A stretch of 64,000 bases of DNA from Candidatus Heimdallarchaeota archaeon (GTDB taxonomy: Archaea; Asgardarchaeota; Heimdallarchaeia; Heimdallarchaeales; Heimdallarchaeaceae), in NCBI GenBank assembly GCA_030603365.1, contig JAUVXV010000004.1, positions 224,001 through 288,000 on the forward strand, read 5' to 3'. Shown here in pieces: positions 46,735 through 46,914 of this stretch; the stretch's first letter is position 1, and each line of letters starts with the position of its first letter. Under the pieces are notes generated by a model that was not told the DNA's origin, did no database searches, and saw only the letters and a list, made by a program, of their open reading frames with translations. The position numbers and the translations under genes are program-made.

Positions 46735-46914
46735 CCTAGTAAGGATTTCAGGTTCGGAATGGGTCTGAGTGTTACCCCCTCACTATGGCCGCGACGTATC
46801 GCAGCGAATGGCTGTTCCCAAGTGATCTCTCAACTTAGTACAGAGCCACACGTCGAAGGGCTTAACTATCCCGAACATCTGGAATGCCTCCAGATGCTTT
46901 CTGACCTTACTAGG
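46735..46914 (-). other. Pre-5S processing stem with bulge-helix-bulge motif
   Basis: CCTAGTAAGG (46914-46905) / CCTTACTAGG (46744-46735), 4-bp helix TCAG/CTGA, and 3-nt bulges AAA (46900-46898) and AAT (46747-46745). Confidence 0.85.
46746..46867 (-). rRNA. rrf: 5S rRNA, circularly permuted: 3' half (46867-46799), UACG linker (46798-46795), 5' half (46794-46746)
   Basis: The - strand reads AGTTAAGCCCTTCGACGTGTGGCTCTGTACTAAGTTGAGAGATCACTTGGGAACAGCCATTCGCTGCGA-TACG-TCGCGGCCATAGTGAGGGGGTAACACTCAGACCCATTCCGAACCTGAAA. All five 5S helices and the loop C motif CCCATTCCGAAC can be formed. Confidence 0.93.

Follow-up and report, generated by a model that had tools for sequence, protein, structure and literature searches.

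Among the closest described systems is the permuted circular SRP RNA of Thermoproteus tenax (Plagens et al. 2015, PMC4731332), an essential ncRNA whose permuted gene is missed by annotation and whose leader and trailer form a bulge-helix-bulge (BHB) motif for a multi-subunit splicing endonuclease, EndA (heterotetrameric for SRP RNA). The locus described here is alike in these respects. However, it concerns ribosomal 5S, occurs in many lineages of a phylum, and has a second, overlapping site suggesting a nested intron. Cleavage and circularity were demonstrated for the SRP RNA, whereas here they are predicted from sequence. Permuted and intron-bearing tRNA genes of Cyanidioschyzon merolae and Thermofilum pendens (Soma 2014, PMC3978253; Chan et al. 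2011, PMC3218864) also resemble the 5S locus, with the 3′ half encoded first, a terminal BHB, a circular intermediate and several BHBs handled one after another. Their two BHBs are stated to be non-nested and independently folding, and RNase P and tRNase Z later open the circle again. In contrast, the two 5S sites, here called A and B, share a CUG and exclude each other, and site B spans the site A junction.

Circularisation of archaeal rRNA is also known. Circular pre-16S/23S and circular or permuted 23S rRNA (PMC12918454, PMC7758197) use, as predicted here, a BHB stem and EndA/RtcB circularisation. The pre-16S/23S genes are in normal order with the stem at the natural ends, whereas the 5S gene is permuted and would be cut inside helix III. 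In Sulfolobus, rare 5S circles have been noted, and their validation was unsuccessful. A 2026 paper on circular archaeal rRNA states that 5S is not processed by the BHB route (PMC12918454).

Permuted 5S has been described only from stramenopile mitochondria, where it is linear (PMC4267664). For instance, brown-algal mitochondrial 5S (Valach et al. 2014, PMC4267664) shares gene-level permutation and a helix I closed as a hairpin with the present locus, but its opening lies at the three-way junction and the RNA remains linear and permuted, whereas the archaeal gene opens in a helix III splice motif. Expansion segments at positions 52-53 (Stepanov and Fox 2021, PMC7812874) likewise place a hairpin insert at the conserved helix III bulge. 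These segments, however, are bacterial, stay in the RNA of genes with normal order and have no reported BHB; for archaea, 104-105 is the only 5S expansion site listed (PMC7812874). A literature search, in which subscription journals were thinly covered, found no report of a permuted or intron-bearing archaeal 5S.

The locus examined here lies in a 64,000-nt stretch (hereafter the window, to which positions refer) of contig JAUVXV010000004.1 from a Candidatus Heimdallarchaeota genome (GCA_030603365.1). On the minus strand the two halves of 5S are swapped: 46867-46801 corresponds to RF00001 positions 51-115 (25.1 bits, E 8e-04) and comes first, and 46796-46747 corresponds to positions 1-50 (33.8 bits, E 3e-06) and comes second. 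The permutation is real, with the 3′ part encoded before the 5′ part. The features of the locus, with the basis of each assignment, are:

46937..46955, minus: BRE/TATA-like element (AATAGTAAAG, followed by TTAAAAAA), roughly 29 nt before the probable start G46915 (sequence; presumed function)
46905..46915, minus: leader arm of the outer processing stem, with G46915 as the probable transcription start (sequence, fold)
46898..46904, minus: 5′ strand of site A, UCAG helix and AAA bulge, predicted cut 46899/46898 (conservation)
46868..46898, minus: putative nested intron (32 nt including A46746), a 9-bp hairpin at 46897-46875 followed by U-CGGG-AU (hairpin pairs covary)
46867..46873, minus: 5′ strand of site B, CGGG (CRGG) helix and AUA (AWA) bulge, predicted cut 46868/46867 (conservation)
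46799..46867, minus: 3′ part of 5S rRNA (RF00001 51-115), encoded first (RF00001 match)
46795..46798, minus: UACG tetraloop closing helix I, at the place of the normal ends (sequence and fold; mostly UNCG in orthologues)
46747..46794, minus: 5′ part of 5S rRNA (to RF00001 position 50), encoded second (RF00001 match)
46745..46752, minus: shared 3′ strand CCUGAAAU, read as CUGA+AAU for site A (predicted cut after 46746) and as CCUG+AAA for site B (predicted cut after 46747) (sequence, conservation)
46735..46744, minus: trailer arm of the outer processing stem (sequence)
46729..46734, minus: T6 tract, probable terminator (sequence; orthologues are U-rich, T6 not constant)
47044..47128, plus: tRNA-Ser(GCT), divergent neighbour of 5S, syntenic in most of the genus

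As encoded, the locus scores 22 bits against the RF00001 cut-off of 38 and does not behave as a colinear gene; an Rfam search at gathering level misses it. Nevertheless, both halves match RF00001 and a 121-nt circle made from them folds in the 5S pattern of helices I-V. The layout is that of a permuted ncRNA gene: the 3′ part comes first, the native ends are joined and a BHB-type motif lies at the new ends. This is the single 5S-like locus detected in the 3.65-Mb, 89% complete genome, which also encodes uL5 and uL18. It is probably the functional 5S rRNA gene, permuted at the helix III bulge. A BRE/TATA-like element similar to that listed above occurs at equal distance in genus orthologues, and a sigma-70 promoter and terminator scan, whose bacterial model is not applicable to archaea, gave nothing relevant at the locus.

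Elsewhere in the window, a tRNA-Trp(CCA) with a 32-nt intron (16866-16974, plus) is missed by the default tRNA scan. Names read from translations suggest a gyrA/gyrB pair (37746-42387, minus) and, near the 5S locus, hypE, hypF and a run of complex-I-like membrane-arm genes (47900-55596, plus). Contig C8 of the genome bears matches to 16S and 23S primer sites, on opposite strands and distant from the 5S gene, so the rRNA genes appear unlinked.

An earlier sequence-only reading of this DNA had described a perfect 10-bp inverted repeat, a 4-bp helix, two 3-nt bulges and a T6 tract around the permuted 5S. All of these are present on the minus strand, and the outer stem and site A appear in the RNAfold minimum free energy (MFE) structure (z = -4.55). 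The repeat pairs CCTAGTAAGG (46914-46905) with CCTTACTAGG (46744-46735), extended by a G46915-U46734 wobble. Inside it, TCAG (46904-46901) pairs with CTGA (46751-46748), flanked by the bulges AAA (46900-46898) and AAT (46747-46745), and T6 (46734-46729) follows the outer stem. The repeat by itself was rejected as a beyond-chance signal, since the window holds 18 perfect 10-bp inverted repeats within 200 nt. What goes beyond chance is its position together with its conservation and covariation: of 23 orthologues, 21-23 retain any given outer-stem pair, and substitutions occur on both sides.

Conservation of site A was followed in these 23 orthologues and in a family set of 31 distinct loci, which are not independent because most come from one genus. 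Its CAG and third bulge A are invariant (23/23), and the first pair is broken in 8 of the 23. Across the family, pairs 1-4 of the NCAG/CUGN helix are kept in 22, 30, 31 and 31 of 31 loci, so that the first pair is broken in 9. On the 3′ strand, 30 loci have the 3-nt spacing and L149 is off by one. In L150 the helix shows a compensatory change from UCAG/CUGA to CCAG/CUGG. Across five genera the outer stem has diverged through paired changes, yet the CAG, the 3-nt distance and the third A of the bulge remain; by this comparison, site A is under selection too. Its inner side consists of a single G-C pair kept in 14 of 23 orthologues, in agreement with the earlier remark that pairing beyond the AAA bulge is short or branched and the motif canonical on one side only. 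Site A therefore has the 4-bp helix and two 3-nt bulges of a canonical hBHBh′ motif without helices flanking both bulges, which makes it a relaxed HBh′ motif. Cuts after the second bulge base would release 46898-46746, a 153-nt RNA with the junction CCGAACCUGAAA/AGCAUC, and would give 152-154 nt in the 31 family loci.

The 153-nt product exceeds a normal 5S by 32 nt, located in the helix III bulge. These 32 nt are absent from the cut product of one of two 5S copies in Ca. Heimdallarchaeum (copy 1) and from insert-free Asgard loci. The end of the insert reads CRGG-AWA, immediately 5′ of GUUAAG, and CRGG complements CCUG with a one-base offset from the site A helix. All four CRGG/CCUG pairs are kept in 23 of 23 orthologues, with G-U/A-U exchange, and in 30, 31, 31 and 31 of the 31 family loci. 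The predicted site B cuts fall exactly between Rfam positions 50 and 51 and would give 121 nt in 29 of the 31 loci, with the junction CCGAACCUGAA/AGUUAAG. Removal at site B restores the conserved sequence exactly, at 121 nt with the canonical 6-nt spacing of normal-order Asgard 5S (L175, L180, L181, L185). In the MFE structure, the insert end instead pairs with loop C (UCGGGA/UUCCGA). This was rejected as its conserved role, given an internal A-C pair in 13 of 23 orthologues against CRGG/CCUG in 23 of 23.

As a putative relaxed BHB intron (HBh′), site B would be complete in this genome after the site A join, and its central helix is kept in 30-31 of 31 loci. The intron helix expected after ligation has an A-U first pair in only 20 of 31 loci and a paired second position in only 16. 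Sites A and B are each canonical on one side only. Heimdallarchaeum copy 1 (L035, L036) has site B alone, as GUGGU-CAGG-AAA against CCUG-AAA-ACCAC, with a direct 5-bp flank and an equal 121-nt product. The closed Heimdallarchaeum genomes carry two permuted 5S copies each, one single-site (L035, L036) and one double-site (L069, L070).

Insert-free loci in other Asgard lineages point to the same position. CGUG/CACG occupies the site B register in Jord-, Odin- and Baldrarchaeia, and registers next to it are used by other lineages. For 48 of the 56 insert-free loci the canonical 6-nt spacing is recovered with the best BHB register (the sole best in 35, tied in 13); in the remaining eight, all Kariarchaeaceae-type, the spacing is 7 nt and the bulge one base longer. 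In Kariarchaeaceae-type loci (L059-L066, L165, L166) the BHB join gives a 3-nt AUA helix III bulge, compared with the usual two bases.

Computed folds separate the two sites, which cannot coexist because both use the CUG. In the precursor, site A (the UCAG/CUGA pairing) has a probability of 0.99 and direct pairing of site B 0.00. In the 153-nt circle, site B reaches 0.48 and native helix III 0.00, with the strict site B conformer 1.3 kcal/mol above the MFE. In the 121-nt circle native helix III has a probability of 1.00. The probability of site B in the circle ranges from 0.01 to 1.00 among orthologues, so the computed values scatter widely.

The genome encodes the enzymes that such processing would use. 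The catalytic EndA subunit (188 aa) carries the active-site Tyr, His and Lys as well as the K44-P45 loop typical of crenarchaeal enzymes, as aligned to PDB entries 3p1z/3ajv (A. pernix). A second, degenerate subunit (180 aa) suggests assembly into a two-subunit enzyme, and RtcB is encoded as well. The genes for a broad-specificity EndA and its ligase are thus present; EndA of the type with the K44-P45 loop cuts relaxed motifs (PMC6379350).

These observations are best accommodated by two ordered steps, to which we assign a probability of roughly 55%: circularisation at site A, completion of site B by that ligation, and removal of a 32-nt intron. A transcript of about 185 nt would fold with the outer stem and UCAG/CUGA. 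Two-subunit EndA would cut both site A bulges and RtcB would join the ends into a 153-nt circle. Inside the circle, the freed CUG would pair as CCUG/CGGG, its two bulges being AUA and the newly joined AAA, the latter closed on the hairpin by the pair A46898-U46874. This HBh′-type site B would then be cut and religated, releasing the intron and leaving a 121-nt 5S with a canonical CUGA-AA-GUU helix III. The product would most likely stay a closed ring, because the UNCG loop seals helix I. BHB processing at helix III in some form, whichever the route, is highly probable.

The earlier proposal of EndA/RtcB circularisation is sustained in that a dedicated, conserved BHB-type stem surrounds the permuted 5S in five genera. 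As a single-site end state it is not supported, both site B and the 32-nt excess over a normal 5S having been missed. It took one cut-and-join at site A to yield the mature 5S as a 153-nt ring (or a reopened one), which would carry the extra 32 nt as an expansion of the helix III bulge. Cuts at 46898-46746 do give 153 nt and the junction it named, but the product is not a normal 5S, since 32 nt are kept and the probability of native helix III is 0.00, against 1.00 in the 121-mer. In the circle, native helix III would cost only 2.8 kcal/mol by computation, an amount that uL5/uL18 binding could supply. Retention of the insert would fit the dominance of site A in the precursor fold, and Thermoanaerobacter-type bacteria tolerate retained expansions at 52-53 (PMC7812874). 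It leaves unexplained, however, why the insert should end in an invariant CRGG-AWA, a sequence that duplicates the only splice site of relatives lacking the insert and pairs wrongly with helix III. It would also produce two 5S sizes in Heimdallarchaeum, and the sole described archaeal expansion site is 104-105. We consider a retained expansion quite improbable. An outcome in which EndA trims the RNA but the final 5S is linear, either because it keeps a nick in helix III (a permuted product) or because the UACG loop is opened again after ligation, seems rather improbable. Precedents exist in brown-algal mitochondrial 5S, which remains permuted and linear (PMC4267664), in permuted tRNAs reopened following circularisation (PMC3978253), and in P. 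furiosus 23S rRNA, relinearised according to work cited in PMC12918454. Yet RtcB is encoded, and helix I is capped by a stable loop of the UNCG type in which no conserved cleavage signal is visible. Moreover, the cut positions restore canonical spacing in most lineages, which matters mainly when ends are joined.

A single step at site B is another route, in which the precursor would be cut directly at CGGG/CCUG and ligated to a 121-nt circle, with site A and the hairpin merely acting as clamp or chaperone. Heimdallarchaeum copy 1 would work in this way, its hairpin lying outside the direct 5-bp helix, and some genus members keep three direct flank pairs (GGU/ACC), with a direct site B probability of 0.76 in L019. 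Of the 31 loci, however, only 14, 11, 25, 2 and 26 retain the successive direct flank pairs, and in this genome the first two do not form. A direct cut would also leave unexplained why the CAG and the third A of the bulge never vary, why the 3-nt spacing is almost fixed over five genera, and the compensatory CCAG/CUGG. This route is unlikely. Finally, an assembly artefact or a non-functional relic might be suspected, as the genome is 89% complete and a normal 5S gene could be unassembled. The layout, though, is common to the genus, the family and closed Heimdallarchaeum chromosomes, and its helices covary, which makes this explanation extremely improbable. As the sequence-only reading had argued, misassembly can be rejected and is effectively refuted by recurrence: DNA matches occur in 24 of 24 same-genus genomes, the layout is read at every spanning locus, and two closed Heimdallarchaeum chromosomes share it. 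Under the ordered two-step reading, the mature RNA junction would be expected as CCGAACCUGAA/AGUUAAG, and CCGAACCUGAAA/AGCAUC would mark an intermediate. Scans of JGI metagenome contigs for joined junctions (family-specific with a 0-35 nt insert allowed, and Asgard-wide) found none; this is weak evidence and uninformative, because a 121-nt RNA rarely assembles.

The permuted layout extends well beyond this genus. A permuted-order pattern searched over 185,579 species genomes had true matches only on Asgard-labelled or Asgard-like contigs (Heimdall, Kari, Jord/Freyr, Odin, Baldr, Hel and Njord); the remaining matches, among those read, were chance hits or normal-order genes. Within Heimdallarchaeia, 79 of 83 genomes, from all seven families, are matched by a covariance model built on the permuted core, and the loci read at the main matches have the permuted order. 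Hodarchaeales-type genomes, whose family identity is inferred, carry a permuted 5S as well. These comparisons indicate that permuted 5S is widespread but not universal in Asgard archaea, because several other families have a normal-order gene (L173, L175-L181, L185, L186). Within the same family, the closed chromosomes of Ca. Heimdallarchaeum aukensis and Ca. Heimdallarchaeum endolithica have permuted 5S genes and nothing above the RF00001 cut-off. Wu et al. 2022 (PMC8813620) were unable to predict a 5S gene in these closed genomes, which the permuted layout explains. In Atabeyarchaeia, L188 and L189 contain a nested duplicate BHB (CGUG and bulge twice around a hairpin), absent in L190, which has an equal outer stem.

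Several individual loci depart from the common layout. For example, one permuted 5S is seemingly opened elsewhere, on the 5′ side of loop C rather than at the helix III bulge (L206), another has an extra loop C insert (L172), and a third has a long hairpin replacing the helix I tetraloop (L204). Genome G070 has two tandem permuted copies (L161). In G026 the 3′ half is repeated just before an N gap (L029:1590-1651), possibly a scaffolding artefact, and a second copy in G041 (L152) has loop C and helix III changes and may be decaying. Normal-order 5S also occurs on short contigs of Heimdall-group bins (L210, L211, L212), of which L211 and L212 look bacterial and are probably contamination. Two further candidates were rejected: an above-cut-off 5S in the same-genus genome G015, as a normal copy of the genus, because its contig is Aenigmarchaeota-like, and a weak third model match in H. 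endolithica (L213), which is not 5S-like.

Outside the permuted genes, Aenigmarchaeota-like normal-order 5S genes carry a 21-23-nt BHB-type insert at the site B position in four distinct loci (L217, L219/L220, L221, L222), absent in four syntenic relatives (L223-L226). Their positions are:

L217:8277-8414, minus: Aenigmarchaeota-like 5S
L219-L226, about 1420-1570, plus: Aenigmarchaeota-like 5S

Removal of the insert by the BHB rule gives exactly the insert-free sequence, and in L217 the insert is a perfect BHB. The L217 contig is misbinned in a Heimdall-group genome, and the named relatives of its RpoB″ (71-78% identity) are mostly Aenigmarchaeota. The insert is a candidate 5S rRNA intron and supports site B as a splice position. 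Permuted genes have been suggested to derive from BHB-intron ancestors (Plagens et al., PMC4731332), and the inserts fit such an ancestry.

In summary, standard gene finders miss permuted 5S genes. In these close archaeal relatives of eukaryotes, 5S maturation would depend on tRNA-splicing enzymes, with a ring-shaped rRNA predicted. The overlapping sites would constitute a nested, order-dependent splice in rRNA, an arrangement that the review of permuted tRNAs denies for its own examples. The claim is directly testable through two short junction sequences, CCGAACCUGAA/AGUUAAG and CCGAACCUGAAA/AGCAUC. As the gene is permuted in Hodarchaeales-type genomes and normal in other Asgard families, its order is a mappable character near the origin of eukaryotes. 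Tentatively, and with the odds somewhat against the full picture, the 5S in ribosomes of Heimdallarchaeaceae may be a covalently closed 121-nt ring produced by two splicing reactions in an obligatory order, the first ligation making the substrate of the second. The helix III bulge would then be a recurrent BHB intron site in archaeal 5S, including the normal-order Aenigmarchaeota-like genes, and would offer a route from an intron-bearing gene to the permuted Asgard genes.
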